DNA of 62,425 nt, the filler included, from Stramenopiles sp. TOSAG23-6 (Eukaryota), in assembly GCA_900128565.1 (NCBI GenBank). It is 36 parts of 36 records of this genome, joined end to end, with 100 filler letters (N's around TTAATTAATTAA, not from the genome) between each part and the next. Parts side by side here need not be neighbours in the genome. Positions count along the whole stretch, not along the records: positions 48,723 to 50,352 come from LT638775.1; 35 more parts are not named here. One strand, given 5' to 3'. Made by a program: the position numbers and the translations under genes. This document shows positions 6,998-60,618 of this stretch, piece after piece. The notes beneath the pieces were generated by a model. That model searched no databases. It saw nothing but the letters and a program-made list of their open reading frames with translations, and was not told the origin of the DNA. The stretch's first letter is position 1; the number at the start of each line of letters is the position of its first letter.

Positions 6998-8645
6998 AAA
7001 TGGATACAGATCACAGTGGTGTAGTTACATGTGACGAATTTATTGAATGGCATTGGGCACACAATCGGAACAGTACAACTGGATCCATTCAAAATGAGGT
7101 GACTAAAGATCTCGATAAGAATAAAAGCTGTTCATATTTCATTCCTGGTCTTTCGAAAAGATATCTTATGAGTAAGTTTTGTGGTGTATCCGTCGAAACA
7201 CAAGGGAAAATGAATGAAGTTGAATTTGGTCTTTTGGTACAAAATATTGCTCTTGATATCGATAATATTGATAATACGAGGAGTTTTGATATGATTTCGT
7301 GTCTTGGTGGAAGGTCTTCTTCTGAGTGTTTTTCAGAGATTGATCGATTATGTCGCGGGTATATACTGTACGTTTCAAAATTAAACGAATTATGTTTTTC
7401 ATACGAAAGTTTGTACCTAATCATTTTTTTACAAAATATATTTTTTTTTACAAAACATGATTGATGACTTTCTTTGGTGGTATCGTCTATATCGTCCTGA
7501 GACACCCGGAGAGATTAAATCACAAGTTAGATTTTTATTTAAGCATATTGATAAGAATAATGTAGGATATTTAACAAAGTCTGGATTTCGAGAATTATCA
7601 GAAAAACTAAATCTTGGACTCACAGATGTCATATCGAGAATAGAACATAAGTTTGATGATACATTCTCCCAAATAGATTTGTGTAAACAAAATCGGGTGT
7701 TCATTGATGATTTACTCCGATGGCATGAAAAATCGTATGAATATTTATATACAAATCGATCAACACCAACAAAGTTTTTATATTCAATATTTAATTGGCT
7801 TTTATCGATTGACCAAGAAACTTCAGAAAGTAAACCAAGTAAAAACAATGAATATTTACATGGATATCTCACAGAGAAACATGTATGGTTTCAAAATTGA
7901 ATTTCGAATTTGTTTTTTTTTGGTAAAAAAATTTCGTACCTAACAAATTTTTTTTATTATAATATTTTTCCAAAATACATCTTGGTTCACTTCTTATATA
8001 TGTAAATGAAACTGTTGAAACATGTTTTAATACAGACGGTGTTATTTTGTGTACAACAATTTCAGATGGTTTTCAACTTATTGATCGAAAACATTGTGGA
8101 AAAATTAGTTTTAGTGATTTCGTGTGGTGGCATAGATTATATCATAAAAATACATCGATTGAAATTGTATTTCAACTTTTATATTTTTTTAATATCGTAG
8201 ATGATACTAATGAACATGTCATTCATAAAGATCAACTGGAAAATTTATTTCATTTTATGAATGAAAAGTTTAAGTATTGTTTTTCTCTGGATGACTGGAA
8301 TCCCCAATGGAAAGATGAATTTATGAATTTATCTAGTATATCAGGTGTGAAATTTCGTGACATTGTTTCTTGGTTGAAACACAAAACACCAAATTTATTT
8401 TCAAATCGTAGAATGAAAATTTGGGATGAAATAAAACATCAATGTACAATGGACGACACGAATTTATATAAAATGCACGAATTACTTGAAAAATCATTGA
8501 TACAAAATATTGTACAGTGTTATGTATGTTTTATTTTTTTTTTAAACAAAAAATCAATTTTTTTTTTATAGTAAATGTTGTACCTAACAAATTTTTTTAG
8601 ATTTTTTTTTTTTGAAATATTTTTCCAAAATACATCCTCTCCAGA
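6998..8645 (+). CDS. Multi-EF-hand protein, partial; GT-AT introns at 7368-7458, 7883-7980 and 8524-8635
   Basis: DTDHSGVVTCDEF, IDKNNVGYLTKSGF and IDRKHCGKISFSDF motifs; the ORFs join in frame after intron removal. Confidence 0.75.
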
Positions 8646-28014: not shown

Positions 28015-29500
28015 ATTCGCCTTGACAGTTTCATCCACATTAGCCAATCTCTGAGCTGCAGACACCAATACGCGCAGAACTTCTATTCTAGTTCCAATTG
28101 TATGTATTTTGGAAAAATATTTCAAAAAAAGAATCTAAAAAAAATTGTTAGGTACAAAATTTCGTACTAAAAAACAAATTCAAATTTTCAAAAAAATAAA
28201 ACATACATGCTCCGTTGCATAAAACTGAGCAGTTAATTCTCTAGCCATCATCTCAGGTTCTTCTACAGTAATTCCAACAAGTGCCTTACAGCGAATCAAA
28301 TCGAAATTCTCAATGTTGAATCGATTTTCAAGAGTCAAAAGAACTCTACTCAATTCAACAGCCACTTCAGGTAAATGTATTTTGGAAAAATATTTCAAAA
28401 AAAAACTACAATTTGTTAGGTACAAACTTTCGTACGAAAAAAAAATCGATTTTTTTGTTTAAAAAAAAAAAATAAAACATACATCAGCTGGAACAGGAAA
28501 TGTATTCATAAGTTCGTCAAGTGATAATAATGTTGTTTCAGTCTGATCATAATTTTTTTGTTTTTCTGGATCTTGAAGATTGGATAAACAATGCCGTAGA
28601 AATAAAATATTCGTTTTTTTTTTTTTTTTTTTTTCAGTACAATCTACATCATTATTATTCATATCATAAGCTTCAAGACTAGCATCGCTATCATCACTGT
28701 CAAACTCAATAGGAGTATTATATCTCTGTGATGCGGATGAAGAATATTCATCTGTATCTTTTGATGTACACTCATCTCCTGCTAATATAGAATTAACAGC
28801 GGACACATCAATTGTTTCATCTGATTTTTTATCATTATCAAAAGATTTGATTGAATTTGGTGATATATTTTCATCGTCACTTGTAAATATTTCATCTGGG
28901 TTCAATATTCCAATTGCTTCATCTGTATTTTCATCTGATAATGGAGAAAATGAATTGATATCCAAATCAATGTCTCGTTTTTCATTCCTTCTTATCTTTT
29001 GTTGTACAACAGATGTAGAATCTATACCAAATTTCGTACAGCCCATGATAGATGTAGTCATTATTTCTCGGAGCTGTTTCACAAGTGTAGACTCGAATAA
29101 CATTTTTTTATCACTCATTTCTGCTTCAACATCTCGAATATTCTTCAATTCGTCAAACTTGAGCAAATGATTTGGATCTAGAGCAAAAGACATGGCTTCG
29201 GCAACTTTCATACCTATCAATTGAATAGCAGGCCGAGGAGAATCCATACGATTTTGTATACCTTTTAATATTAATGGCATTGATAAAGAGTTCTGAAGAC
29301 CAACCGCACTATGAATATCAACATAGTATTGCATACATAAACTTAAAGATTTTGAAACGCACTGTTGATACCTCTCGTCACCACTATTTGTAAATTCTAA
29401 GCTACTCCATGTTTCAGCAACATGAGTCAAAGTCAAAGCAAGAGATTTTGATGAATACTTCCGTAAGAGATCTACAATATACGAAATACTTTCGACATCA
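28015..29500 (-). CDS. TELO2: Telomere length regulation protein TEL2 fragment; GT-AT introns 28375-28482 and 28102-28206
   Basis: LILKGIQNRMDSPRPAIQLIGMKVAEAMS; LEAYDM; LPEVAVELSRVLLTLENRF...RCKALVGITV. Confidence 0.85.
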
Positions 29501-36503: not shown

Positions 36504-36705
36504 NNNNNNNNNNNNNNNNNNNNNNNNNNNNNNNNNNNNNNNNNNNNTTAATTAATTAANNNNNNNNNNNNNNNNNNNNNNNNNNNNNNNNNNNNNNNNN
36601 NNNAATGTATGTTTTATTTTTTTTCAAATTCGAGTTTTTTTTCATACGAAATTTTGTACCTAACAAATTTTAGTTTTTTTTTTGAAATATTGTTCCAAAA
36701 TACTT

Positions 36706-41701: not shown

Positions 41702-41885
41702 NNNNNNNNNNNNNNNNNNNNNNNNNNNNNNNNNNNNNNNNNNNNTTAATTAATTAANNNNNNNNNNNNNNNNNNNNNNNNNNNNNNNNNNNNNNNNNNN
41801 NACAAAACAAATCATATATGCAAAGATGCAAAGATTGCATATATATCTAGATGTGTACTGTAAAGCATTCATAGTTACAACGTAC

Positions 41886-42910
41886 AAGTCGATCACCAGT
41901 GAGAGAATCAGCACCACATTGAAGAACTATTGCTCCAGGGGCGTATCGATCCATAATAACTTGAATGACTGGACGAAAAACTGACACAAATGTTTCATCA
42001 TCCATACCATCTTTTAACGGGAAATTGACAGAATATCCCTTACCATCAGCATAACCAAAATCTTTGACATCACCAGTCCCAGGGAAATAATCACCAAATT
42101 TATGAAAGGAGCAGGTCATGTAATTTGGAAAAANNNNNNNNNNNNNNNNNNNNNNNNNNNNNNNNNNNNNNNNNNNNTCAAGAATGGCCAATACACAATC
42201 ATTGACATAACAAAATCCTGAGGCTTCACTTTTTTTTGCGTGATGTAAACCCCCAGCCCAATTTACACAAATGTCAGATCGTTCACTATTTAGTCTTATA
42301 GCACCTCCAATAGAACCAGAAGTATAAATCTGACAAAACTCAAAGAGACCATCAAATACAGGACAATCTTCTCCAACATTAAACCGTTGCAATTGTCGTA
42401 AATACTCCCCTGCAGTGTATAAAAATAGAAAAAAGAAGATTCAAGTTAAAAACAGGAATTTCACGACAAATGGGTAATAGTATTGAAGAAGAATACTTTT
42501 TATGAAATTGATGTAATCATCCGAGTGAAAAGTTGTCATTTGACTTGGCGTCGCAAGCTGTGGGCGGAAGACTTCCATCTTTTTATATAGTCCGTAATTT
42601 ACTACTAGATTGTGAGTCATTCGTACACGATGTGGCTTCATAGGATGACCTCTGTATTTTGGAATATAAACAAAACAAGGTTTAGACTGAGTATACATAA
42701 AATCAATTCAAAATAAAATTTTGGTGGACATGATTGAGGGGAAAAAGAAAAGCTACACTCCATTTCAGTGAAGCGGTAAAAAGAATACATCTCTGAAGAA
42801 TGTTTTGCATATATAACGTACTGACCATAATGAAAGTTTCCTACATCACAATCAAAAAAGTATGACACACGGCGTTTCGATCTGTTTGTACCATAATCTA
42901 TTCCACTCAT
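41886..42910 (-). CDS. HDAC1: Class I histone deacetylase (RPD3/HDAC1-like); GT-AG introns 42652-42821 and 42410-42496
   Basis: [68 protein letters not shown]. Confidence 0.95.
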
Positions 42911-43074
42911 TGTCGCACTATATAATCCTACGTAATATGTTGTTAGTACGTGTGCGCGATATGTCTCCACACGAGGGGAGGGACAGCAACTTGGATTTTT
43001 GAGTTCTCTCATTCTCCTTTTATTCGACAACACGAAATATCATTCGATTATCATTGATTTTTTTTGAAGAGGGT

Positions 43075-43105
<31 letters not shown>

Positions 43106-43214
43106 NNNNNNNNNNNNNNNNNNNNNNNNCAATGTTCAACGTGATCAACAAAACTTTGGCATAGTACTAAATACTACGTACTATTTAATATTATTATAGA
43201 GATATTGTTTTACA

Positions 43215-43432
43215 ATGGCAACTAGAAGAGGTTCTAAAGCTCCAGACCCGACCAAAGTACCCGCTATAGTGGAGCCTACATTTCTTGGTGAAACAGTACC
43301 GTCTGTTGTTCGAAGTCTCGTTCCCATTTTGCATTCCCTGTCGGTTGAAAAATTATCTGTGACTCTTCGTGGTGCTCTCAAATATTTACGTGATGGTAAT
43401 TTGTTTTCACTAGAAGAACTAAATGCTCTAGA
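43215..43432 (+). CDS. COMM-domain protein (COMMD5-like) N-terminus
   Basis: PTFLGETVPSVVRSLVPILHSL resembles COMMD5 FLGAQLPPEV; divergent from HDAC. Confidence 0.5.
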
Positions 43433-43585
43433 NNNNNNNNNNNNNNNNNNNNNNNNNNNNNNNNNNNNNNNNNNNNTTAATTAATTAANNNNNNNNNNNN
43501 NNNNNNNNNNNNNNNNNNNNNNNNNNNNNNNNTGTACCTAACGATTTTTTTTAGATTTTTTTTGAAATATTTTTCCAAAATACAT

Positions 43586-45138
43586 GCTTCCAAAACCACT
43601 TGTGATTAGATCAACTTCAAAGTTACAGCTTCAAGCGAAGGATGAGAATTCTTTGTTTTCTGTAACAATTACTGATATTTTTAATTCTCCAGTTGAAAAA
43701 TGCCGAGTTACTTTGTATGTTTTCATCATGAATTTTTTTTTTCATACAAAATTTTGTACCTAACAAAATTTTTTTTTTTTTTTTAAATTTATATTTTTTT
43801 ACAATACTGGAGTGCATTTCGCGTGAAGGAATATTTACTCGAAGAAGTTCCCATGTCTTTGAAAGGTAATTCAAAATCTGTGTACGAATACAATTTCTTG
43901 TCTGCTAATCCAGATATTGGGTTATTCGATCTTGATATAAAAATCACACCATTAGATGAAGACAGTCCTATTATTGTGCCACGTGTCATTATGTACGTTT
44001 TCATCCTTCATTGTACATTTTAAAATGTATTTTTAAAATGTATTTTTAAAATTTTTTTTTTAAATGTATTTTTAAAATGTATTTTTAAAATGTATTTTTA
44101 AAATGTATTTTCAATTTCGATTTTGTTGTACTGTGAAAATTTTTCTTCCTCACGAGTTTTCGAATTTGGTGTAATTCTTTATGATGCATGATTACAACTT
44201 CAGTATCGGTAGAAGAAGTTACTATTTGGGTGGATCGAACCGAGACTTCAAGATATGTACGTTTTCATTATTTTTTTTGCCTTTTTTTTTTTTTCGTACG
44301 ACATTTTGTACCTAAGAACAAAAATCTTGTACTATTTTTTCACAATACATCCTTCTGGTAAAGATAAAAAGATTACAGCATTGTCTCCAAATGCAGTCGA
44401 TTCAGTGTTGAATGTAGACATAAATGAAGTTTTGCATGTCATGTTTGAACCTCTTTCTGCAACAAGTGGTGATACAATAAATCCACATCAAGCATTTCTT
44501 AAAATTCAACACAAGGCATCGAATGTTGATACAATTTTTGTGGCTGTGGCGAATGAAGTTGATGGGAAATACACTATTTCTTGCCCTATTAATGATATTG
44601 ACGCTTGGAAGTCGACTTCAGGTCTTCATTCTTTGACACTCTACATCGGAGATCCGAAATTGAATCAATTTTTCGAATGGCAATTTGCTAAAGTTAACTT
44701 GACATTACAAGAAAAAGTTGTACCAGAATTGTGTACGTTTTCAAAATTGAATTTCGAATTTATTTATTTTTTCGTAAAAACAATTTTGTGTCTAACAAAT
44801 GTCGAATGTAAAATATACTTTCACAAAATATCCTTATATACGAGATCTCTTCTTCATGTACGTTTTCATTATTCATTTCAAATTTATTTATTTTTTTTCA
44901 TACGAAATTTTCTAAGTAAGAAATTGAATTGTTTTTTTGAGTTTTTATTCGATACGTTTTTCATTATTCATTTTTTATTTATATTTGTTTTTGTATTTTT
45001 TATTCTTATAATTTTATTTTTTGTATTTATTAAAAGTTGTATCAAAATTACAAAACTAACAAATTTTATTATAGAAACATATTTTGTACAAAATATCATA
45101 CAGACACAACCCTTATCGCCCTTCCTGAAATTAGTCAT
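43586..45138 (+). CDS. RPN2: Oligosaccharyltransferase subunit ribophorin II fragment, six exons separated by family introns
   Basis: PHQAFLKIQH, SGLHSLTLYIGD, LYTRSLLH/TDTTLIALPEISH. Introns 43715-43809, 43993-44189, 44257-44350, 44733-44831, 44858-45096. Confidence 0.85.
43715..43809 (+). other. Family intron, GT-TG termini
   Basis: ACT TT|GTATG...CAATACTG|G AGT GCA is the in-register, frame-restoring junction. Confidence 0.65.
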
Positions 45139-48100
45139 GTACGTTTTATTTTTTTTTCAATTNNNNNNNNNNNNNNNNNNNNNNNNNNNNNNNNNNNNNN
45201 NNNNNNTTAATTAATTAANNNNNNNNNNNNNNNNNNNNNNNNNNNNNNNNNNNNNNNNNNNNTGTACCTAACGATTTTTTTTAGATTTTTTTTGAAATAT
45301 TTTTCCAAAATACATGCTTCCAAAACCACTTGTGATTAGATCAACTTCAAAGTTACAGCTTCAAGCGAAGGATGAGAATTCTTTGTTTTCTGTAACAATT
45401 ACTGATATTTTTAATTCTCCAGTTGAAAAATGCCGAGTTACTTTGTATGTTTTCATCATGAATTTTTTTTTTCATACAAAATTTTGTACCTAACAAAATT
45501 TTTTTTTTTTTTTTAAATTTATATTTTTTTACAATACTGGAGTGCATTTCGCGTGAAGGAATATTTACTCGAAGAAGTTCCCATGTCTTTGAAAGGTAAT
45601 TCAAAATCTGTGTACGAATACAATTTCTTGTCTGCTAATCCAGATATTGGGTTATTCGATCTTGATATAAAAATCACACCATTAGATGAAGACAGTCCTA
45701 TTATTGTGCCACGTGTCATTATGTACGTTTTCATCCTTCATTGTACATTTTAAAATGTATTTTTAAAATGTATTTTTAAAATTTTTTTTTTAAATGTATT
45801 TTTAAAATGTATTTTTAAAATGTATTTTTAAAATGTATTTTCAATTTCGATTTTGTTGTACTGTGAAAATTTTTCTTCCTCACGAGTTTTCGAATTTGGT
45901 GTAATTCTTTATGATGCATGATTACAACTTCAGTATCGGTAGAAGAAGTTACTATTTGGGTGGATCGAACCGAGACTTCAAGATATGTACGTTTTCATTA
46001 TTTTTTTTGCCTTTTTTTTTTTTTCGTACGACATTTTGTACCTAAGAACAAAAATCTTGTACTATTTTTTCACAATACATCCTTCTGGTAAAGATAAAAA
46101 GATTACAGCATTGTCTCCAAATGCAGTCGATTCAGTGTTGAATGTAGACATAAATGAAGTTTTGCATGTCATGTTTGAACCTCTTTCTGCAACAAGTGGT
46201 GATACAATAAATCCACATCAAGCATTTCTTAAAATTCAACACAAGGCATCGAATGTTGATACAATTTTTGTGGCTGTGGCGAATGAAGTTGATGGGAAAT
46301 ACACTATTTCTTGCCCTATTAATGATATTGACGCTTGGAAGTCGACTTCAGGTCTTCATTCTTTGACACTCTACATCGGAGATCCGAAATTGAATCAATT
46401 TTTCGAATGGCAATTTGCTAAAGTTAACTTGACATTACAAGAAAAAGTTGTACCAGAATTGTGTACGTTTTCAAAATTGAATTTCGAATTTATTTATTTT
46501 TTCGTAAAAACAATTTTGTGTCTAACAAATGTCGAATGTAAAATATACTTTCACAAAATATCCTTATATACGAGATCTCTTCTTCATGTACGTTTTCATT
46601 ATTCATTTCAAATTTATTTATTTTTTTTCATACGAAATTTTCTAAGTAAGAAATTGAATTGTTTTTTTGAGTTTTTATTCGATACGTTTTTCATTATTCA
46701 TTTTTTATTTATATTTGTTTTTGTATTTTTTATTCTTATAATTTTATTTTTTGTATTTATTAAAAGTTGTATCAAAATTACAAAACTAACAAATTTTATT
46801 ATAGAAACATATTTTGTACAAAATATCATACAGACACAACCCTTATCGCCCTTCCTGAAATTAGTCATGTACGTTTTATTTTTTTTTCAATTNNNNNNNN
46901 NNNNNNNNNNNNNNNNNNNNNNNNNNNNNNNNNNNNTTAATTAATTAANNNNNNNNNNNNNNNNNNNNNNNNNNNNNNNNNNNNNNNNNNNNTGTACCTA
47001 ACGATTTTTTTTAGATTTTTTTTGAAATATTTTTCCAAAATACATGCTTCCAAAACCACTTGTGATTAGATCAACTTCAAAGTTACAGCTTCAAGCGAAG
47101 GATGAGAATTCTTTGTTTTCTGTAACAATTACTGATATTTTTAATTCTCCAGTTGAAAAATGCCGAGTTACTTTGTATGTTTTCATCATGAATTTTTTTT
47201 TTCATACAAAATTTTGTACCTAACAAAATTTTTTTTTTTTTTTTAAATTTATATTTTTTTACAATACTGGAGTGCATTTCGCGTGAAGGAATATTTACTC
47301 GAAGAAGTTCCCATGTCTTTGAAAGGTAATTCAAAATCTGTGTACGAATACAATTTCTTGTCTGCTAATCCAGATATTGGGTTATTCGATCTTGATATAA
47401 AAATCACACCATTAGATGAAGACAGTCCTATTATTGTGCCACGTGTCATTATGTACGTTTTCATCCTTCATTGTACATTTTAAAATGTATTTTTAAAATG
47501 TATTTTTAAAATTTTTTTTTTAAATGTATTTTTAAAATGTATTTTTAAAATGTATTTTTAAAATGTATTTTCAATTTCGATTTTGTTGTACTGTGAAAAT
47601 TTTTCTTCCTCACGAGTTTTCGAATTTGGTGTAATTCTTTATGATGCATGATTACAACTTCAGTATCGGTAGAAGAAGTTACTATTTGGGTGGATCGAAC
47701 CGAGACTTCAAGATATGTACGTTTTCATTATTTTTTTTGCCTTTTTTTTTTTTTCGTACGACATTTTGTACCTAAGAACAAAAATCTTGTACTATTTTTT
47801 CACAATACATCCTTCTGGTAAAGATAAAAAGATTACAGCATTGTCTCCAAATGCAGTCGATTCAGTGTTGAATGTAGACATAAATGAAGTTTTGCATGTC
47901 ATGTTTGAACCTCTTTCTGCAACAAGTGGTGATACAATAAATCCACATCAAGCATTTCTTAAAATTCAACACAAGGCATCGAATGTTGATACAATTTTTG
48001 TGGCTGTGGCGAATGAAGTTGATGGGAAATACACTATTTCTTGCCCTATTAATGATATTGACGCTTGGAAGTCGACTTCAGGTCTTCATTCTTTGACACT

Positions 48101-48773
48101 CTACATCGGAGATCCGAAATTGAATCAATTTTTCGAATGGCAATTTGCTAAAGTTAACTTGACATTACAAGAAAAAGTTGTACCAGAATTGTGTACGTTT
48201 TCAAAATTGAATTTCGAATTTATTTATTTTTTCGTAAAAACAATTTTGTGTCTAACAAATGTCGAATGTAAAATATACTTTCACAAAATATCCTTATATA
48301 CGAGATCTCTTCTTCATGTACGTTTTCATTATTCATTTCAAATTTATTTATTTTTTTTCATACGAAATTTTCTAAGTAAGAAATTGAATTGTTTTTTTGA
48401 GTTTTTATTCGATACGTTTTTCATTATTCATTTTTTATTTATATTTGTTTTTGTATTTTTTATTCTTATAATTTTATTTTTTGTATTTATTAAAAGTTGT
48501 ATCAAAATTACAAAACTAACAAATTTTATTATAGAAACATATTTTGTACAAAATATCATACAGACACAACCCTTATCGCCCTTCCTGAAATTAGTCATGT
48601 ACGTTTTATTTTTTTTTCAATTNNNNNNNNNNNNNNNNNNNNNNNNNNNNNNNNNNNNNNNNNNNNTTAATTAATTAANNNNNNNNNNNNNNNNNNNNNN
48701 NNNNNNNNNNNNNNNNNNNNNNACAAAATTTCGTACGAAAAAAAATTCGAATTTGAAAAAAAATAAAACATAC

Positions 48774-48925
48774 ATGCCCACATCATTCCAAGTAATGGCA
48801 ATGCATCCGGAATGAGTCGAAATAGAGTGCGAAAAATTGACTGAAACCGATGAAACGAAAATACAACAAAGTATTTTGAAAAAATATTTTACATTTGAAA
48901 TTCGTTAGGTACAAAAAATATTTTG

Positions 48926-48956
<31 letters not shown>

Positions 48957-50261
48957 AATTTAAAAAATTCATGATGAAAAATGTACCGTCCAAATCGAGC
49001 AAGCCGTAAGACTAAAATAAACTGCAAATATCGTTGAGCAGAATCACCTTCTCCGTTTTTTTTCACATCGAGAAAAACAACAACAGCAATGAATTGCATA
49101 AAGCATACATGTATTGTAAAAAAAATTAAATTCGAAATTTGTTAGGTACAAAATTTTTATAAAAAACTAAAAAATTAAAAAAAAAAAATAAATTTGAAAT
49201 TCATAATGAAAACGTACGATGAAGTCTACAACATTTGCTCTGCTAGCAAAATATTTATGAAATCCAAGGACAGAATTCTTCAAAACCATTTCTACAATGT
49301 AAACAAGACAAAATGACAATTCAATAGCTGCAGAACTAAAATTAACATCTTGGTCTAATTCAAGAATTACAAACGTCGCATTTAGTAGAACAACCGTTAC
49401 CATGTATTTTGGAAAAATATTTCAAAATATTTTTTTCCGTAAAAAAAAAAAATTGTTAGGTACAAAATTTTTTTACCAAAAAAAAAAAAAATGTAGACAA
49501 AAAATTGAAAAAAAATAAAACATACATAATAGCTTCGAAAATCCAATGAAGGACAATAAAGCGTAGGAACCTTCTAGTACTTTGACACGGTGACCACAAA
49601 TCTGTCACAGCGGTATCAAGATCCATTAAAACACGAGATATATTATGAAAAATATTTTTTTTTTTTTTTTTTTTTACGAAAAAAAAAAAAATTGTTAGGT
49701 ACAGAATTTCCTATAAAAAAATATATAATTTGAAATTCATGATGAAAACGTACATGCACGATTCATATTTCTAATTGTTGTATATCTTTGGGTATTCGCA
49801 AATTGACTATAATCACTACTATTAGTATTTGTTACATCAGATGAATTTTTAAAATTTTTAGAATTTTCATCATATGAATTTTTAGAATTTTTAGAATTTT
49901 CATCATATGAATTTTTAAAATTTTTAGAATTTTCATCAGATGAATTTTTAGAAATTGTTTGATATGGTGGGATGTATAATCCATTTCTTCTTTCTTCATT
50001 GTATTTACGATTTCTCCTATTTTTATTTGTTTTGGTTCGATGAAAGCATTCCTCAATACAAAATACAAATTCATCAAACGATACGTAATGCTTTTGAGAC
50101 AATGACGAAACAGTATAACATTTATCATTTAATACATTTTTGCTTTCAAGATGGTTTTCATTTGTTTGTATATTTGATGAATATTTCATATTTATCATTT
50201 TGGTGTGTAAAATATCAAGAATAAATTTCTCTGGAGCTAAAATATTTGCATCTGCAGCTAC
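48774..50261 (-). CDS. Two-pore channel (TPC)-like fragment; family introns 49638-49753, 49402-49525, 49109-49217 and 48869-48986
   Basis: VYIVEMVLKNSVLGFHKYFASRANVVDFIV; FILVLRLARFGRVV; degenerate EF-hand VSFDEFV upstream. Confidence 0.8.
48869..48986 (-). other. Family intron, GT-TT termini
   Basis: GGA CG|GTACAT...AAAATACTT|T GTT GTA gives the S4 sequence RLARFGRVV. Confidence 0.75.
49109..49217 (-). other. Family intron, GT-AT termini
   Basis: GAC TTC ATC|GTACG...CAATACAT|GTA TGC gives DFIVC. Confidence 0.85.
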
Positions 50262-50319
50262 ATGTAATGTGTTTTTTTTTTCAAATTTATTTTTTTCTGT
50301 TAGGTACAAAATTTCATAC

Positions 50320-50352
<33 letters not shown>

Positions 50353-50452
50353 NNNNNNNNNNNNNNNNNNNNNNNNNNNNNNNNNNNNNNNNNNNNTTAA
50401 TTAATTAANNNNNNNNNNNNNNNNNNNNNNNNNNNNNNNNNNNNNNNNNNNN

Positions 50453-51789
50453 CGAATTGGGATCGTTTTTTAAGTGCTGCCAATAAAGTTGCGATAGTAA
50501 AATAGATGGTTCTTCTAACAAATATCTGCCTTTTTCAACAGACCAGCGTTTTGTTAGTTCTATATTTAAATTGAGATAATACTTTGCTTCTTCTACTTTA
50601 CCTGCATACACTGCAGATGCACCAAGACCTTGACGTGACATGTAGTTATCCGTCGGATACACAGCTATATTGGAACTCATCAATGAATTTTCGCTCGCCC
50701 AATCAGGATTTCTCAAATATGTTTGTGTNNNNNNNNNNNNNNNNNNNNNNNNNNNNNNNNNNNNNNNNNNNNNNNNNNNNNNNNNNNNNNNNNNNNNNNN
50801 NNNNNNNNNNNNNNNNNNNNNCAACAATTAGAATTACTGCCCCAATTGAGGGTAAAAATAAAGTACGTTCTGCAATAACAAATGCCACACTTGTAAGTAC
50901 ATGAGAAGATGGGAGATATGCTATTACCCCAATGGCAAATGCAAGCAGTCTGACATGCCGACGAGTGTATGCCTCTGAAAGAGTTTTTTTAATGGCAAAA
51001 AAAGATATAATCCAAACCGCCAGTGTTGCGAGATTTCGAATATCGTACATCTTTGTGACTAAGGGTAACGCAATATGCTCATGTGCTAACGGCATCAAGG
51101 GTGGATAGAATAACATAGCCACTGCGCGTGTTTGAACATGAGAAATAGCGACAAATTTTTCGAAAACTGTATTTAAATCACTCATTGGATTATGTAACCA
51201 GAGGNNNNNNNNNNNNNNNNNNNNNNNNNNNNNNNNNGCGAAAAATTAACAAACTGATTGCAAAAGTAGTTACACAAGAGCACCTAACTTTTGCTATCCG
51301 TATTGCCTCAATGCAATCAATGAAAAACTCTCTTATGAGTACAAGTATGCTTCGTGAGGAATTAAGGATAGATTCATTATCTGTTTGTGGTGTAGCATAA
51401 GCTAACTCAAAAGAAAGTAGAATAGCTGGTACAACAAGTGCGGTTTCTTTACTGACTACTCCAAGAATAATTAAGATAAAACAAGCAAGCACTGGCAGTA
51501 GTTGGTCAGTTGTTTTCATCGAAACAAGCACAAATTATTCAAATATCAATATTTGGGTTTCTTTTGACAACATTTGCAACACAAACATATTTGAGAAAAA
51601 TGCGGATAAAGTTTCTGCTCGAGATGTAACGTTAGAAACCACTTCAGAGTGAACAGGATGAACTGCAAACAGTATTGACGCTGCTCCAGCCCGACTCATT
51701 TCTTGCCTACCAAAAATAGCTGAAAAAAAGTATGCAGCCAGAAAAACAGTTGCAGCATGAATTAGTATATTAGTATAATGAAATTTCAT
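50453..51789 (-). CDS. TMTC-family protein O-mannosyltransferase fragment (frameshifts and gaps)
   Basis: FHYTNILIH; LFAVHPVHSEVVSNVTSRAETL; SKETA; FVIAERTLFLPSIG; TYLRNPDWASE. Confidence 0.88.
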
Positions 51790-52080
51790 TATACTAATAT
51801 ACTAATTCATGCTGCAACTGTTTTTCTGGCTGCATACTTTTTTTCAGCTATTTTTGGTAGGCAAGAAATGAGTCGGGCTGGAGCAGCGTCAATACTGTTT
51901 GCAGTTCATCCTGTTCACTCTGAAGTGGTTTCTAACGTTACATCTCGAGCAGAAACTTTATCCGCATTTTTCTCAAATATGTTTGTGTTGCAAATGTTGT
52001 CAAAAGAAACCCAAATATTGATATTTGAATAATTTGTGCTTGTTTCGATGAAAACAACTGACCAACTACTGCCAGTGCTT
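51487..52080. repeat. Perfect fold-back inversion centred near 51783
   Basis: The same 84-aa ORF appears on both strands; centre TATAATGAAATTTCATTATA. Confidence 0.9.
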
Positions 52081-52319
52081 NNNNNNNNNNNNNNNNNNNN
52101 NNNNNNNNNNNNNNNNNNNNNNNNTTAATTAATTAANNNNNNNNNNNNNNNNNNNNNNNNNNNNNNNNNNNNNNNNNNNNAAAAAGAACTACAATCTCTC
52201 TAGTCAAAATCTAACTTTTAAAATATGTTCAAAATTGAATTTCAAATTTATATTTTTTTTTTCGTACGCATTTTTGTAACTAACAATTTTTTACTATTTT
52301 TTTTTTTTTCACAATACAT

Positions 52320-53360
52320 ACGTCAAACTATTCTGGGGAATTAACATTATTGAAGGATAGTTTATGTTGTCCTATCTATAATGTAAACTCTTTTGATAAC
52401 CAACATTTATTATTAAAAGTTTGCGATAAAGAAGCCTATAAACAGGCGAATCGAATTTCAACATCAAAACAATCTCGCGCGGTGTATAATACTAATGCAT
52501 CTATTGCCTCTCCTTTTCCTAAAATTGACAGTTTTGTACGGTCATATTTAAGTAGTATTCCTGGACCAATGCCACCGTGTATCCGACAGTCTACTTTTTT
52601 ACCACCAAGTACAATTGTATATGAAATTTCACAAAATCGATATTGTGAACGTATCAGGAGAGAGCATCGATCAAATAATGTGTATTATGTAGCTAATATA
52701 CAAAAGTCTACAGTAAAAGATGATACTATTGCCGGTGATAAAAATATCGTAGGTGGTTGGTTGTACCAAAAATGTCATGATATCGAGTGTAAACAATCAA
52801 ATTTTAGATCTAATGGTGTTCCTATCCCACATAATGTTACTGTAGATATCGGTTGGAATTGGGATAACGAATGCCTTGAGAGTGGTAAAAATGAAAATGT
52901 GTCACCCAGTACAGCGAAAAGTGTACTTTTAAATAATGTTGAGAAGTCTTGTTGTGACATTTCAGATAATGTAGATGATAATTGGCTTGATGATGATGAC
53001 GATGATGTAATATTGGCTGCTGTTGAGGACGTGGAACGTTCTATATTAGATAGTAGTCTACTGACGAATGTTTCAGAAAACACAGATGATGATCAAATAG
53101 ATGATGATCAAATAGATGATGATGCAATATTAGCTGCTGTTATGGACGTGGAACGTTCAATGTTGGATAGTAGTCAACTCTTATCAGAAAACACAGATGA
53201 TGATCAAATAGATGACGATGCAATAGATGACGATGCAATATTAGCTGCTGTTGAAGATGTGGAAAGGAGTCAATTTTCAATGATTGAAAAGGAAGAGGAT
53301 GAAATAGATAAAAGCTCTTGTTTGGCCATGGATGAATTCGAGAGCTCATTTATGATTTAA
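52320..53360 (+). CDS. PRIMPOL: PrimPol C-terminal UL52-type zinc finger and acidic tail
   Basis: NRYCERIRREHRSNNVYY...YQKCHDIEC...FRS; preceded by a probable AT-AT intron 52223-52319. Confidence 0.88.
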   Translation, partial: TSNYSGELTLLKDSLCCPIYNVNSFDNQHLLLKVCDKEAYKQANRISTSKQSRAVYNTNASIASPFPKIDSFVRSYLSSIPGPMPPCIRQSTFLPPSTIVYEISQNRYCERIRREHRSNNVYYVANIQKSTVKDDTIAGDKNIVGGWLYQKCHDIECKQSNFRSNGVPIPHNVTVDIGWNWDNECLESGKNENVSPSTAKSVLLNNVEKSCCDISDNVDDNWLDDDDDDVILAAVEDVERSILDSSLLTNVSENTDDDQIDDDQIDDDAILAAVMDVERSMLDSSQLLSENTDDDQIDDDAIDDDAILAAVEDVERSQFSMIEKEEDEIDKSSCLAMDEFESSFMI

Positions 53361-53913
53361 CTATACACTGGACACAACATCATGATTGATAAAAACCTTT
53401 TTTAATAAATATACTTAATAATAATTTGTTCATATTTGCTTTGCATAATCTCCATAGTGTTTTTTTTACTGAAACATTATAATACTCCAGAATCATATCC
53501 TACAGTTGTGATTACTTCATCAAATCTTGCATCCACAACAGCAGCTGCTTTTGAAGATTTTGGCCTTTTTGAAAATATCTTCTGCCGTATTTTTATCACG
53601 AGAAAAATTACAAGCAAAAATATCACTATACCCGATGTGATCAATCCAATCATGAGATTTTTAGAAATTTTCCTTTTTGAGTTCTCTTTTTCAATTTCAT
53701 TCTTCTTGTTAAACCCTGGACCGTCATTTTGTGGATCCGTTTTATTGATACCAGCAGCAGCTTTATCAGCAGCAGCTTTATCCGCAGCAGCTTTATCCGC
53801 AGCAGCNNNNNNNNNNNNNNNNNNNNNNNNNNNNNNNNNNNNNNNNNNNNTTAATTAATTAANNNNNNNNNNNNNNNNNNNNNNNNNNNNNNNNNNNNNN
53901 NNNNNNCACTTAC

Positions 53914-53931
53914 CGAGGCTGCACTACCCAT
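53914..53931 (-). CDS. Possible first exon MGSAAS (N-myristoylation-like) with a canonical donor
   Basis: ATG GGT AGT GCA GCC TCG|GTAAGT, divergent from TSR1. Confidence 0.35.
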
Positions 53932-54273
53932 ATTCTACAGTAGTTTACTAATCCTATTCTGTTGCTAATCCTATTCTCGTCAACGACAACACCATATCAT
54001 TTTATTGATTAAAGTATAGCGTAAAAATGATATTTTTAGTCTTCGTTGGTACAATAAATAATTGATTTACACGACTTGAAACTGTCACAACTCTAAAACA
54101 CGAAACCCAAACACTGTAAAATATTTTTGTACATAATATTTGTACGTAAAGCGAATTGAAATCGAAATGTGCTGACTCCAAAGTGATTGATGTTCAGCTC
54201 TATATGTGGCTCTTTTCTAGCTAGTGTATCGTAGTGTAGTATTGGTAATTCTAACTTCGATTTACAATTAACC

Positions 54274-55481
54274 ATGGTAAATGAGACCCACCGCCATCGT
54301 TCTGGTACTCAAAAGCAGAAAAATAAGACACACAAGCGAAGTAATATTAGTAAGCGTGCTTTGAAAAGATCAGCTCCAGGTCGTATTGAAGCGCCGACTA
54401 AGCGCATTTCAATTAAAGCTGGCGAAAAAGTCAATAATGCAAAAAGAAAAAAGAACCGGGCCAAGCAGCTGAAGCAGCAAAAATTGGACCGATTACGTTC
54501 TCAGCGCCGCCTTGGTGGAGGTTCTAACGCACCAAAGGTTGTTTCTATACTACCATTAGCAGAAGGTGTCGATATTAATTCAATAGTGTCTGGTTTAACC
54601 GGAAGCACCGGGACAACTCCTAGTTGTTCTCCTCTTGGACATGCGACGGTCGAGTCTCGTAAGCTCAAGCAACGCTTTACATTTATACCGACTATGCGTA
54701 GCGTTCCGGGCGTACTAGATGCTGCTAAAGTAGCTGATGTTATTGTAGTTGTTCTCCCAGCACAGCATGGACAAGAGCACTGCATTGATGAGTTAGGTGA
54801 TGCTTGTATTTCTGCCTTGAGAGCTCAAGGTCTTCCAGCAGTGATATGTTTGACTACTGGTTTAAAGCAACTTCCACCAAAGCGCGCCCCAGAGATGCGT
54901 AAATATGCAAAGCGACTTTTTACAACTGAGTTTGGCGATTCAGTAAAAGTTCTTGATGATGGGAACTATTTCCACGTACTAAGGGCCTTAAGTGACGTTC
55001 GATTGAAGGAATTGAAATGGCGAAATTTGAGACCATATATTGTTGCTGATTCTTACAATCTATCAGAAGGTTCAAACAACGATTCATCAAATTTGGTGAA
55101 TCTTCAAGTGAAAGGTTACCTTCGAGGATCGGCATTATCACCAAACCAATTGGTTCATATCACAGACGTTGGAACATTTCCGTTACAAACTATGTATGTT
55201 TTATTTTTTTTCAATTTCGATTTTTTTTTTCGTACGAAATGTTGTACCTAACAAATTTTAGTTTTTTTTTTTTTAAATATTTTCCAAAATACATTTCTGG
55301 TACTTCTGATCCCTGTAAAACAAAAAGGTCAAAAATATTGGATGAAGAAAAACTTCTTTTGACTTCTGATCCTTCTATTGTAAATGAAGATTTCATGCGC
55401 TCCGAGGTGATGCCGACAGATGATTGTTGTGAACAAACCTGGCCAACCCAAGAGGAAATGGCGGTAGCTAGAATGGAGTAT
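54274..55481 (+). CDS. TSR1: Pre-rRNA processing protein TSR1, 5' part; GT-AT intron 55194-55294
   Basis: HRHRSGTQKQKNKTHK; LDAAKVADV; LRAQGLP; WRNLRPY; GYLRG...NQLVHITDVGTF; EQTWPTQEEM. Confidence 0.95.
55194..55294 (+). other. Consensus-like family intron, GT-AT termini
   Basis: ACT AT|GTATGTTTT...CGTACGAAATGTTGTACCTAAC...TCCAAAATACAT|T TCT GGT. Confidence 0.9.
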
Positions 55482-55686
55482 GTATGTTTTATTTTTTTTT
55501 TTTAACAAAAAAATCGAATTTATTTTTCGTACNNNNNNNNNNNNNNNNNNNNNNNNNNNNNNNNNNNNNNNNNNNNTTAATTAATTAANNNNNNNNNNNN
55601 NNNNNNNNNNNNNNNNNNNNNNNNNNNNNNNNGTACGAAATTTTGTACCTAACGATTTTTTTTTGAAATATTTTTCCAAAATACAT

Positions 55687-57169
55687 GCCTTGCGTTTGAA
55701 ACATGTTTCTCAGCCCCTACTGTCGCAGTATTTAGTACAGATCGTTGGTATTACCTTTTAATACAAGGAATTTTATTAGGTTTATTGCTTGATGTCGTTC
55801 AATTTGAATTATTTTTAATTGTCACTCAATCGATGGCTAGATTTGAAAATTGGGAAACTGCAACAGCGTATGATTTTTCATTGGCAAAAAAACAATTTTT
55901 ATTCTTATGGGTGAATATGTATGTCTGGTTTTGGGGACTTGGGTTAATATATGTACCATATGGTCCATTTATTTGTGAATACTTAATTCGAATTGGTATG
56001 GGATATTTAGTGCCTGCAAAGGGATGGATGGATAATACAATTAATGTCGATGAAGCTTTTCTTACTCCGCTTGTAGCAACGCAAAGTATAAATCTTTTAT
56101 TAGAAACTTTAGTGCCATATTATATTGGTAAAGCAATGCACAAAAGTAAACGAAAAGCAAAAAAGAAGAGGCACCAAAAGATCATAAAAGAAGGCCATAC
56201 AGAACCAAGAGAAATGACTGGGTTGGAGATTCAACTACGAGAAAAAGGTCTTGGGTCTCTTAAAAAAGGATGGAAACTTTTAAAATCTTCACGAGTACAA
56301 TTACGTGGTTATGCCAAACAAGCACCAACAGCTGGAACTAAAGTATTCAGTGCTATAGCTCATGTTTTTAAAACATCAGAGGAAGAGAAAGGTCGAAAAC
56401 GAAAAAAACTAGCGAAAACATTATTAAAACAAGTTTATTCCCAAATGCAGGAAGCTGATGGCGTTTCCTGTGATATGAAGAAGTTAGATATGCTCGATGC
56501 TTTATATTCTGATTATTATGTGCTGGATATGGTACAAAATGGGGCAGGTGGAGTCTTACGACCAATGTTGTCTATACGAGGTGACTTGGCACGAAATTTA
56601 GCAAAATATAGAACAGTAAGAGAAGGATATATCTCATTTGAAGAGTTATGGAACTGGTCACTTCAAACGAATTTGTGGAAAGAGAATATACTATCTTATA
56701 ATTCTAAAGATGGCGTTGGTGACATCAACACAAAATCGCTTATCAACACAAGTTCACATCAAAGGGAGATGATTGCTGCTGTATTAGCAAAATACTCATC
56801 CGGAATATCTTACTGTCAATCACTAGCTGCAGTTGTTGGAAGAAAATATCATGTAAAAATTGATGTACATTTGGAAACACCTGATATGAATGAGTATTGT
56901 GCAACGGATGTGACGGAGCAAAGCTTACTTGGCCAGTTTGATCCGAGAGATGATTTTTTGGATGTATTGCTTCAGCTAGGATATCAACTTCAATTTACTG
57001 TAGCATGGCCCTTTATACCACTGTGTTGTTTAGTGAATAATTACTTTGAAATTCCGTCGGATTTATTTAAACTTTTGTTTACATGTGCACGCCCTATTCC
57101 AAGACAACAAGACAGTTTAGCAGAATGGGAAACTATGCTGTGGTGGGAGCCAATACTTTCATGTCCAAT
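55687..57169 (+). CDS. Anoctamin/TMEM16 family protein, internal exon
   Basis: MARFENWETATAYDFSLAKKQFLFLWVN; DDFLDVLLQLGY...AWPFIPLCCLVNNYFEIPSDLFKLL...RPIP. Confidence 0.9.
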
Positions 57170-57419
57170 GTATGTTTTATTTTTTTTTCAAATTCTATTT
57201 TGTTTCGTACGAAATTTTGTACCTAACGTTTTTTTTTTCAAATATTTTTCCAAAATANNNNNNNNNNNNNNNNNNNNNNNNNNNNNNNNNNNNNNNNNNN
57301 NTTAATTAATTAANNNNNNNNNNNNNNNNNNNNNNNNNNNNNNNNNNNNNNNNNNNNTAGGTACAAAATTTACTATAAAAAAATAAATTCGATTTTTTTG
57401 TAAAAAAAAAAAAAAATAT

Positions 57420-58144
57420 TCTTTTTTTTTGGGGGGGGGGGGAACCTACTCCTCCAGTAAAAGGTAAATCCGTTGGTAGCCCAAGTACGATCGATCCGTC
57501 AATGTGACGTCCGTCTACATGTATTTTGTAAAAATATTTCAAAAAAATTTTCGTAAAAAAAAAATTTGTTAGGTACAAAATTTCGTACGAAAAAAATAAA
57601 TTCGATTTTTTTTTTACCGGAAAAAAAAAAAAATAAAACACACACCTAAGAAGGGAATGCCTATTGGCCCATATTCACGATCACTAAATGTACCATATCC
57701 AGGAGTATTGTAATCTTTGAAACCACCTCCATAGTCAGAGCCTTTGACATGGATTATGAAAAAATATTTCAAAAAATTTTCTATAAAAAAAAAAATTGTT
57801 AGGTACAAAATTTCGTACGAAAAAAAAAATTCGAATTTGAAAAAATATAAAACATACATACATTTGCTCCCAATTGGTAAACTCTGGTCGGAAATTTTGT
57901 GGTGAACTTTTTCTTTGGTTTGCTTTTGATGTTGAATCAACACTTTGTTCTTTTATGGCTTTTATGGCTTTTGTGGCTTTTATGGATGTAGAGACAGTTG
58001 TATCTGATTTTTTTTTCTTGATTTTGAATGCATTATTCCGAAGCGCCAAAGCATGAACACTTGACGTTTGGTGTAAGACATTGAAAGAATGAAAGTAATA
58101 TGAAATTGTAATAATATGAAATAAAAATGAACTGGTCATAGTCA
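57420..58144 (-). CDS. Predicted secreted hypothetical protein; family introns 57749-57857 and 57519-57643
   Basis: Exons join in frame: WEQMY/VKGSDYGGG...PFLG/VDGRHIDGS. Confidence 0.6.
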
Positions 58145-58538
58145 CTAAAATTATGGAATTTTGTTTTACTAAGCCCTTCTTTTACATGCAAGTTGCAAAG
58201 ACATCATAAACGATCAATATCTGATCTCGATCTTCTAGTTTTATATTTTGATCTTTGAAATTTGAATTGAAAAAAATTCACCAAAATCCCCGGTGATTTC
58301 GGAGAAAAAAAGAAAAAGTTACCCGGCACCCAAACCGAAATGGAGCGAGGTAAAAAATTATTGTTATTTTGAAGCATTTTGAGCATTTTGCTTTCTTCGA
58401 AGCGAAACCAAACAAAAAACGTGTGTCCTCGTCCTCTGTACTTCGTCGTACTACACAACATTATTATAAAGTGGACGTGTTTATATATTAACCAAAAGAG
58501 AGAGCCTCAGAGAAAGTCTTTGATTATTCTCTTGTGGC

Positions 58539-58981
58539 GATGGACATTACTGTGGACTCGGAAGTGCTGCACGTGAATACCAACGGCACGCCACCCGCTT
58601 CCTCCATTTCAAAGAAAGAGATTTCTCAAACTCCTGAGGGTCCTAGTAAAGGGGAACTTACGGATCCAAAAAGCATAGCCAGTACTGAAAACGATATCAC
58701 CGAAAATAATGTGTCAACCCTAAATACAACGAAAGACGATAGTACGATGGATACCAAATCTGAGAAAATAGATAAACCTCAATTATCAGTGGAGAACCAA
58801 AAAGAAGAACATAGGATGTCGAGTTCTTTGTCGAGTTCCGAAAGTACGTCGAGTTCCGAAAGTATTACATCAAAGGCTGCAGAAAGTAAAGGGGAAGTAG
58901 ACACTAGTGTAGAAACATCGGAGGAAAAAGTTTCACAGTCCTCACCTAAGAATCAAATAGAAAAATCGGAGGAAAAAGTTT
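58539..58981 (+). CDS. Ser/Glu/Lys-rich hypothetical protein, N-terminus
   Basis: ORF open to the scaffold end. Confidence 0.45.
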
Positions 58982-59132: not shown

Positions 59133-60618
59133 GTGATCCTGCTTTTCAAAGGTATTATACTGATGATAATGCACGTGTATGTCTTAATTTTTTTTCAAAT
59201 TGTTTTTTTTTTCGTACGAAAGTTCGTACCTAACAAATTTTAGTTTTTTTTTTTTGAAATATTTTTCCAAAATACGTTCACTTCTAGCTGGATTAGCAAC
59301 TCGGTCACTTTTGCGTAACTCGGCATGGGACTCTATCATTGTAAGTGCTGTACTAGCTAATTTGCGTATGGCTGGTCCAAGTGGCTTTGCAGATGGATCA
59401 CTAATGTTTAGTGATATTGCAAAAAGTGGTTGGGAGGCACGATCTGCAAAGGATCACAAGAATATTAAGAGTGTATATTCACCACACTACCAATCTTACA
59501 TTTGGGCTGTTTTCCTTCGAATGTATAAAATAACTGGATACAAACCTCTTTTAGAAAAGGCCAAAAATGCCATTTCAAATATGATGGACAAGTACCCTGA
59601 ATGGTGGCAAAGTACGAGCAATGGTATCACAATGCAACGGGCACGAATGATTTTGCCACTTGCATGGTTAGTCATGGTAGAAGACACACCGGAGCATCGG
59701 CAGTGGCTTGATGTAATTACTCAGGGTTTGCTTGAAAGACAAGATATAAAAACGGGTGCGATTCGTGAGGAAATAAGTGGTAAAGGTTGGGGGTCCAGTG
59801 CACGTGTACCAAACAACACAAATTACGGTACATTTGAAGCACCGCTTAACCAGTCAAATGAAGATCCAGTAAGCGATCTTTTGTATGTTTTATTTTTTTT
59901 CAAATTCGAATTTATTTATTTTTTTATAAAAATTTTGTACCTAACGAATTTTTTTTTGAAATATTTTTACAAAATACATGTACACAACAAACTTTGCTTT
60001 TCTTGGTCTTCATGAAGCAGTACATGTATGTTTTAAAAATTGATTTTTTTGGTCTAAACATTTTTTTATAGGATTTTTTTTTTACAAAGAAAAAAATGTA
60101 TATTTTTGTACCACTAATGCTGTTGGTCCAACAACTGAAATGGGAAAACGATATATGGCAGCTGAGGATCGTCTGGCAAATTTGCTAGTTCGTGCACAGG
60201 TTACCAGTGGTGCTGTTTGGTCCAATGAGGATACAGACACGACAGATTGGGAACACACTGAGCTAAATGGGGCATGTATGTTTTCATCATGAATTTATTA
60301 TTTTTTTTTCGTACGAAATTTCGTACCTAACAAAACAAATTACAAAAAAAAATATTTTTTCACAATAAATGGTTTCGTGCCTTTGATTTTGAAAAGTGGG
60401 AATATTGGGCTTCTGATAGTGATATTGGTTGGGGGGCATGTACATTTTCATAATGGATTGAAAATTAATTTATTTTTGTACCAAATTTTGTACTTCTGAA
60501 AAAAAATCGAATTTGACATATTTTTTCATAAAACATGGTCTATTGAGACAGGTTGGACACAAGCATGGATTAGCTCTGTATTTGCCATGCGTCAACTAAA
60601 TCAGAGTTTGTGGGACAT
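59133..60618 (+). CDS. Six-hairpin glycosidase-like protein; family introns 59177-59277, 59883-59979, 60026-60118, 60276-60370 and 60440-60536
   Basis: Spliced product: YTDDNARSLLA...ERQD...NYGTFEAPL...DPVSDLLYTTNFAFLGLHEA...LNGAWFRAFDFEKWEYWASDSDIGWGAWSIETGWTQAWI. Confidence 0.75.
59177..59277 (+). other. Family intron, GT-GT termini with GT repeated at both junctions
   Basis: GCA CGT|GTATGT...CAAAATACGT|TCA CTT. Confidence 0.75.

Follow-up and report, generated by a model that had tools for sequence, protein, structure and literature searches.

The voltage-gated channel gene on contig 48723-50352 (LT638775.1) of Stramenopiles sp. TOSAG23-6 (Eukaryota; GCA_900128565.1) raises the question of where its short introns are cut. 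The contig is one of 36 in the window, which is the whole 62,425-nucleotide (nt) stretch of DNA that was analyzed. In the introns of this gene, a GT donor is followed near the 3' end by an AATAC-like pentamer and two further bases. Similar introns recur in the window, and most copies have AT at both junctions, as the preliminary description of this DNA had stated. In the present tally, AT lies just before the donor GT in 19 of 27 placed 5' ends and closes the intron in 20 of 25 placed 3' ends. A copy with AT on both sides gives the same mRNA whether it is read as GT..AT or, two bases to the left, as AT..AC. The preliminary description had proposed that two junctions of the channel gene, one in S3 (49109-49217) and one in S4 (48869-48986), resolve the splice register and that the acceptor is set by position, about 2 nt after AATAC, or by distance or structure, with only a preference for AT. 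The present analysis indicated that GT...(AATAC)NN is the best reading of the junctions and a fairly likely one. The second proposal, an acceptor that is positional with AT only preferred, is somewhat doubtful and partly supported at best.

The channel gene is read on the minus strand from exon A (50261-49754) through exon B (49637-49526), exon C (49401-49218; from the end of S1 to S3, ending ...VVDFI) and exon D (49108-48987; from the end of S3 to S4, ...LRLARFG plus CG) to exon E (48868-48774; the rest of S4 and the S4-S5 linker). Intron 1 (49753-49638; 116 nt) and intron 2 (49525-49402; 124 nt) have the borders AT/GT..AT and are both spliced in RNA. Intron 3 (49217-49109; 109 nt) is GT..AT with a 5' flank of TC and intron 4 (48986-48869; 118 nt) is GT..TT with a 5' flank of CG, if both are cut at GT. 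Only the 5' part of intron 5 (48773-48723; AT/GTATGT...) is present, because the intron is cut off at the contig end. Exon C matched the Pfam family Ion_trans (E = 2.7e-06; 27.2 bits with a cut-off of 25; profile positions 10-74) as well as the NavPaS, Cav1.1 and TPC1 chains in the Protein Data Bank (PDB). Exons B, D and E, searched singly, matched no Pfam family, and exon D alone matched no channel in the PDB; the exons other than C are too short or too divergent for single-exon matches. Searching a library of 1.84 billion proteins with exon C revealed only two relatives, P0002 and P0003, of which P0002 was the better match. Comparison of exon C with longer proteins yielded neither a homologue nor a transcript-derived protein of this organism, and none of the 596 pattern stretches that it matched in metagenome contigs was a relative.

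The borders of the two key introns are atc/GTACGT...ACAATACAT/gtatgc (intron 3) and gacg/GTACAT...CAAAATACTT/tgttgt (intron 4). A cut at GT with the acceptor 2 nt past the AATAC-like pentamer is called register 0, and a shift of both cuts two nucleotides to the left, which gives NN..AC, is called register -2; registers -1 and +1 are numbered on the same scale. Register 0 joins ...TTCATC to GTATGC at intron 3 and ...GGACG to TGTTGT at intron 4, and the products are ...VVDFIVCFMQ... at the S3 junction and ...LRLARFGRVVFSF... (RLARFGRVV) at the S4 junction. In register -2 the mRNA joints are GACTTCAAT/GTATGC, i.e., ...TTCA+ATGTATGC, and ...TTTGGA+TTTGTTG, with DFNVC and FGFVV as products. Register -1 gives DFIVC and FGLVV. 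The coordinates and the paired readings DFIVC/DFNVC and RLARFGRVV/FGFVV, as first described, were correct on re-translation. The protein of register +1 is identical to that of register 0 at both key junctions; therefore, protein alone cannot fix the register and leaves 0 or +1. The claim that these two junctions resolve the register thus held insofar as register -2 is disfavored and failed insofar as registers 0 and +1 remain.

Three constraints bear on the choice. The residue after DF was I, L or V, and never N, in all 10 of the printed PDB domain alignments that reach the end of exon C. The occurrence of I, L or V at this place in solved Nav, Cav and TPC channels excludes register -2. The second constraint is the third S4 arginine of R-x-x-R-x-x-R, which is kept only by registers 0 and +1. 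In the alignment with P0002, this arginine pairs with a lysine in a helix with R or K at every third position, and the alignment score was 145 with registers 0/0, compared to 141 with -1/-1 and 137 with -2/-2. The regular spacing of basic residues in S4 (R-L-A-R-F-G-R), which is obtained only under registers 0 and +1, is the register argument itself and not independent evidence.

The third constraint was obtained from RNA. Five seawater metatranscriptome runs from two studies contained 9-21% of the sampled words of 48723-58722, and the RNA contigs of four runs (X1, X2, X3 and X5; all contig sets) were aligned to contig 48723-50352 only, which contains no N. In X3 record 23, positions 49561-49637 adjoin 49754-49869, i.e., 116 nt have been removed at intron 1. 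This joint permits registers 0, -1 and -2, and register +1 is excluded because the g at 49637 differs from the c at 49753. Splicing of intron 2 was seen in one contig each of X2 and X5, in which the joint 49400 to 49525 skips 124 nt; the joint is free by three positions, and the register is therefore not settled there. With the GT donor fixed, the removed lengths of 116 and 124 nt would place the acceptor after AT. If one register holds throughout the family, only register 0 survives the three constraints taken together. At the two key junctions themselves, register 0 is the one that the conserved channel residues suggest.

The HDAC gene on contig 41802-43432 provides a line of evidence that is independent of the family. 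Its exon 1 aligns with residues 4-26 of HDAC1 chain 5icn_B and its exon 2 aligns from residue 27. The intron between them (42821-42652; minus strand; 170 nt) is GT..AG, its interior is unlike the family, and its final AG is immediately preceded by AATAC (..TTCCAAAATACAG). Register 0 gives the product YGQGHP at this intron, and register -2 would turn it into CA..AC. The AT of the family occupies the place of AG in this conventional intron. A second HDAC intron (42409-42497; minus strand), read by eye and with approximate borders, appears to be an ordinary short GT..AG intron (GTATTC...CACTGCAG) without the family features. If it is as read, it suggests that conventional introns coexist with the family.

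Introns 3 and 4 appear to be members of a multi-copy, transposon-like intron family (introner), of which the repeated copies are directly observed and the transposon origin is presumed from their sequence. The 11-mer GTACCTAACAA occurred 31 times, compared to 0.03 occurrences expected, and none of 100 shuffles reached 31. Its copies are distributed over 17 of the 36 contigs, which represent 15 distinct sequences, and the family hosts include channel, ribophorin II, RCC1-repeat, Tsr1, anoctamin, VPS13 and TELO2 genes. The contigs are 1,622-1,650 bases long with a GC (guanine plus cytosine) content of 23-38%, and they are separated by 35 spacers in which TTAATTAATTAA has 44 N on each side; genes never run over these spacers, and readings that cross one are artefacts. 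The ribophorin II gene is present on three contigs (43533-45162, 45263-46892 and 46993-48622) that do not differ in a single letter and were probably duplicated in the assembly; the introns present in triplicate were therefore counted once.

The members of the family are 91-125 nt long. Their common features are the donor, which is GTATGT or GTACGT with TTTT after it, the box TTTTGTACCTAACAA and a T-rich tail ..CCAAAATAC with two bases after it. The branch-like box TACCTAAC lies 33-57 nt before the 3' end (35-57 nt in 19 introns and, by hand count, 33 nt in 49217-49109). Intron ends were placed by weight matrices that are blind to the flanking and terminal dinucleotides. The tally of 5' ends leaves out 49108 (the start of exon D) as well as 16978 and 61490 (low scores) and adds 48986, which is below threshold; the tally of 3' ends leaves out six rows scoring <8.9 and an opposite-strand hit at 40714. 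All 27 of the 5' ends had GT within a shared GTAYGTTTT. The terminal dinucleotide of the 25 3' ends was AT in 20 cases, TT in two, and TG, GT and AG in one each. YAT stands just before the donor in 14 of the 27 copies, and the intron ends with CAT or TAT in 19 of the 25. The flanks are mostly AT/AT, though AT is palindromic; a single copy is GT/GT (59177-59277), and eight complete copies have unlike flanks. Pairing of ATGTAT with ATACAT (6 base pairs [bp], or 4 bp without AT) was present in 11 of 19 folds and absent from the two key introns, and the pentamer of the GTACGT copies carries no compensatory change. An Rfam scan of the sequence gave no match. A search of metagenome contigs with a 19-base family motif gave only two chance hits (L001 and L002), both in ordinary sequence and not in family introns. 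Comparison of a 127-amino-acid ribophorin exon with proteins of 69-223 amino acids revealed neither a homologue nor a transcript-derived protein of this organism.

Several observations weigh against register 0 or against its extension to the whole family. The chain of constraints presumes one register across all family copies. The S4 argument consists of one residue and two distant relatives, and the alignment with P0003 puts the S4 junction in a gap. Spliced RNA for introns 3 and 4 was not found in X1, X2, X3 or X5, nor was any found for a non-AT end, and the TT-ended intron 4 was seen only unspliced in these four runs. AC closes the pentamer in 20 of 25 copies and AT closes the intron equally often (20 of 25), so that conservation at the 3' end is silent on the register. 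The first and last bases of an intron interact with each other, and the working pairs known are G..G and A..C; on these grounds, AT-AC is a priori likelier than GT-AT. At weakly conserved junctions the registers are indistinct by homology: they give L or W at 43715, L or M at 59883 and 7368, G or D at 57643 and V or L at 34358.

Five family introns, moreover, do not fit GT...AATAC+2. The intron at 6073-6180 (plus strand), in an RCC1-repeat gene, starts with ATATGT and ends with AATAC+AT, and the frame is open across it. The intron at 61338-61165 (minus strand), which has an internal duplication and VPS13_N in its upstream exon, has the in-frame start ATATGT. It ends with AATAC+AG, as had been noted before, but it does not start with GT and is therefore AT..AG; a GT four bases upstream (61342) fails to link the upstream frame to the acceptor. 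Both of these introns begin with A in open frames, which is poor for a GT donor and would fit AT..AC. The intron at 16659-16463 (minus strand) is one base out of frame, and no single register joins its flanking frames; the mismatch may stem from an indel in an exon, from a different placement of the borders or from the gene being a pseudogene. This intron contains two branch boxes and interrupts the sequence of a pore region (..FAMMTLTT), in another channel-like gene. The ribophorin introns that start at 44733 and 44858 have degenerate pentamers and matrix-predicted ends CC and CA. An AT is located 2 nt from the predicted end, upstream at 44733 and downstream at 44858, and more than one combination keeps the frames open. 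Another intron of the ribophorin gene (43991-44190; plus strand) is longer, carries tandem copies of a AAAATGTATTTTT-like unit and ends with ..GATGCAT, not with AATAC+AT.

The copies with unlike flanks or unusual ends were read individually. The ribophorin II intron at 43715-43809 (plus strand) is TT/GT..TG, and the intron at 36607-36705 (plus strand) is AT/GT..TT with its upstream exon lost in N; both ends were confirmed as first described. The copy at 59177-59277 (plus strand) does end with GT, as listed, but its 5' flank is also GT, so that registers 0 and -2 give one protein. The register of this copy is no clearer than that of the AT/AT copies, and its repeated GT resembles a direct duplication of 2 bp. 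The remaining copies end with AT and differ in the donor flank: TT/GT..AT at 59883-59979 (plus strand), CT/GT..AT with the pentamer AAAAC at 7368-7458 (plus strand) and GT/GTGTGT..AT at 57643-57519 (minus strand).

Sequences that could compete with the acceptor were considered next to its position. Of 20 introns, 19 contain an earlier YAT between the branch box and the acceptor that is passed over. The two introns with spliced RNA are among them, with such triplets at 43, 50 and 55 nt (intron 1) and at 29 and 39 nt (intron 2). In 7 of the 20 introns, judged by reading frame and not by RNA, an AG 10-18 nt past the branch A is likewise not used (8524-8635, 28102-28206, 28375-28482, 36607-36705, 55194-55294, 57749-57857 and 59177-59277). 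AT alone therefore cannot define the acceptor, and neither the first YAT nor the first AG past the branch is tenable as an acceptor rule. End-to-end RNA pairing was rejected as an acceptor ruler since it is absent from the folds of the two key introns, where the proposal that structure sets the acceptor thus gained no support. Of the positional claim, the placement two nucleotides past AATAC is probably right, as register 0 fits all three constraints, but the part in which AT is only preferred is partly supported at best.

An alternative to this part of the claim is that GT-AT is a strict rule and that copies whose ends drifted to TT, TG or GT undergo inefficient splicing, splicing at another site or none, in which case the channel allele is possibly impaired. 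A single RNA contig covers the TT acceptor of intron 4. This contig, X2 record 13 (depth 2.74; 48781-48910), is unspliced and extends from exon E at least 42 nt into the intron across its 3' border, though X2 also contains spliced intron 2. The AT-ended intron 3, however, was likewise seen only unspliced, in X1 record 7 (depth 2; 49204-49296), which runs from exon C 14 nt into the intron across its 5' border, and retention at this depth is thus not specific to TT. RNA coverage of exon D was almost nil, with a depth of 0 in the bins 48943-49052 and of 0.06 (X1) and 0.82 (X2) in 49053-49107. Ends that are neither AT nor AG are rare (4 of 25), and in the degenerate-pentamer copies at 44733 and 44858 the AT 2 nt from the predicted end also leaves the frames open, as a strict rule would have it. 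Against such a rule, the open frame and the intact S4 motif of the channel require the TT site, and the same holds for the TG-ended ribophorin intron. A strict GT-AT rule is accordingly judged unlikely, although it is the strongest of the alternatives.

Less probable still is an NN..AC register, in which both cuts lie two bases farther left and the common copies are AT-AC introns with a variable donor dinucleotide, processed by the major or the minor spliceosome. Voltage-gated channels are a class known for AT-AC introns in animals, AT-AC is a known working pair in both spliceosomes, and the family resembles AT-AC introns (U12-type or the rare U2-type) in having AT and AC at the junctions of most copies. 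The RNA joints permit this register, the pentamer would supply the terminal AC in 20 of 25 copies, the AT/AT copies would yield an unchanged mRNA, and the ATATGT copies would stay AT..AC. The key introns, however, would then have the termini TC..AC and CG..AC, not AT..AC, and their products would carry DFN, with N at the position of the I, L or V seen in 10 of 10 channel alignments, and FGF in place of the third S4 arginine. The HDAC intron would become CA..AC. U1 and U6 pair with the invariant GTAYGT when the cut is at its G, and NN..AC leaves this motif unexplained at +3 to +8. In U12-type introns, the donor is /ATATCCTT or /GTATCCTT, and the branch box TCCTTAAC and the acceptor are about 10-20 nt apart. 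The introns of the family are not U12-like: all 27 placed 5' ends are GTAYGTTTT-like rather than ATATCC, and TACCTAAC is 33-57 nt away from the 3' end. The family thus differs from AT-AC introns in its donor and its branch distance, and homology at three junctions favors the GT register.

The odd ends TT, TG and GT might also be assembly or base-calling errors, given that the draft is fragmented into contigs of approximately 1.6 kb, is rich in homopolymer runs and contains one contig in triplicate. X2 record 13, which comes from an independent RNA library, aligned over 130 nt with one other letter and with no difference listed at the TT end. This agreement argues against an assembly or base-calling error at the TT; the GT/GT copy has matching flanks. 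Errors of this kind are therefore a very improbable explanation. Removal of the segments from DNA, as in ciliate internal eliminated sequences, would account for short dinucleotide-bounded repeats with one copy retained and for the presence of both forms in RNA libraries, which can contain DNA, but the donor, branch box and T-rich tract are spliceosomal signals and the genes read through in the standard code, so that this explanation is hardly credible.

The reading in register 0 would most likely correspond to ordinary U2-type splicing, with the 5' cut directly before GT and the 3' cut after the two bases that follow the AATAC-like pentamer. As the two terminal bases are AT in about four-fifths of the copies and AG in a few, most members would be GT-AT and not AT-AC introns. 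The exon-side AT at the donor would represent one copy of a 2-bp target duplication, and removal of the element with one AT would restore the gene. The wider proposal is that the major spliceosome of this organism routinely ends introns on AT, chosen by an ..AAAATAC context approximately 35-57 nt past TACCTAAC, and not by the dinucleotide itself, that it also takes AG, TT, TG and GT at that place and passes over earlier YAT and AG, and that the habit was spread by one introner family whose excised copies are perhaps circular RNAs. This proposal is put forward tentatively and is less likely to be right than wrong.

The family is conspicuous in the RNA libraries. Over conserved intron ends (48723-48777, 49383-49437 and 49108-49162), the summed RNA contig depths range from hundreds to thousands. 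Unspliced RNA, stable excised introns or DNA carry-over may underlie this very high abundance of family intron sequence. Some RNA contigs of X1 and X2, placed over 48723-48776 and 49401-49427, join the 3' end of the family to its 5' end (...AATAC-AT-GTATGT..., e.g., 48775/49404), with aligned sides of only 19-29 nt. No tandem head-to-tail arrangement of the family was found in the DNA of the sequence examined, and these contigs may represent circular excised introns or tandem copies elsewhere.

Comparison with described introns placed the family among non-canonical, transposon-derived introns of a known sort, probably with an AT acceptor combined with a GT donor as the new feature. Introners are MITE-like DNA transposons (MITE, miniature inverted-repeat transposable element) that create spliceosomal introns and have been described in Micromonas and Aureococcus (Huff, Zilberman and Roy 2016, as cited in the available text of PMC11282704). 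In the accessible part of a 2025 introner survey, families with unfamiliar splice sites are stated to have been screened by hand (Gozashti et al., PMC12130899). As far as these two sources extend, the family shares with introners the occurrence of near-identical short introns in unrelated genes, an element that brings donor and branch, and the restoration of the gene when the element and one repeat are removed (PMC11282704, PMC12130899). The termini of the family may form a short inverted repeat (ATGTAT/ATACAT), and the flank repeat might be a target duplication, which would be further similarities to the introners covered there. The introners described in these texts use GT..AG or other standard sites, whereas the family analyzed here would use an AT acceptor.

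The larvacean tunicate Fritillaria offers the closest precedent for the acceptor. In the portion of the report available (Soo et al. 2026, PMC13326754), a 3' AT is the commonest acceptor and accounts for 34% (F. borealis) or 44% (F. pellucida) of introns. YAY is found just ahead of the donor and again as the final triplet of the intron. These introns are proposed to derive from transposons and are processed by the major spliceosome, and duplicated U2AF subunits are proposed as readers of the AT acceptor (PMC13326754). The YAT before the donor and the CAT as the last three bases of the family resemble this YAY rule. The main classes given for Fritillaria in that portion start with AG (AG/AC and AG/AT), whereas the family keeps a strong GTATGT donor and a strong branch box. 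Variable terminal dinucleotides, direct repeats over the borders and pairing of the ends are features that the family shares with euglenid, Amoebophrya and hemistasiid introns, as these are presented in the available texts (PMC11282704, PMC7789003, PMC12621601). Euglenid introns are described there as excised as circles, and the RNA contigs of the family join the 3' to the 5' end. In contrast to the family, the introns of these groups are without a conserved donor and branch box according to the same partial texts (PMC7789003, PMC12621601), and the end pairing of the family amounts to only 6 bp. A full-text literature search for GT-AT introns gave a single, unrelated paper and no such intron family, nor does one appear in the accessible part of a paper obtained when introners in marine single-cell genomes were sought (PMC5778133); the coverage of this search is incomplete, which makes it weak evidence.

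The matches in seawater metatranscriptomes point to a marine planktonic eukaryote as the host, and its genes read in the standard genetic code. The C-terminal half of COPA, a fragment that an Atlas search assigned to its family without an informative taxon, had its best named relatives in Chrysoparadoxa (37% identity), land plants, green algae, Prymnesium and Aphanomyces. No animal was among the named COPA hits (49 hits), and a larvacean host such as Fritillaria was rejected on this ground. A diplonemid host was rejected as well, since diplonemid splice sites are GC-rich in the available text of PMC12621601. A plant-type leucine-rich repeat gene (LSGTIP.. units) was observed at 19218-19575 on the minus strand, on a contig that apparently also bears a family intron, recognized as the translated box motif only; this gene suggests a protist and not an animal as the host.

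Nearly all spliceosomal introns end in AG, and few lineages break this rule at large scale. Those that do, such as Fritillaria, Amoebophrya, euglenids and hemistasiids, serve as the principal natural experiments on the recognition of intron ends by the spliceosome. If the reading in register 0 is true, a textbook donor and branch box combined with an AT acceptor would constitute a cleaner case, in which only the acceptor has changed. The choice of the acceptor by dinucleotide, context or distance would then become directly testable, as would a relaxed pairing of the first and last intron bases. For the organism itself, it would mean that gene finders restricted to GT-AG introns would mis-annotate most of its genes.

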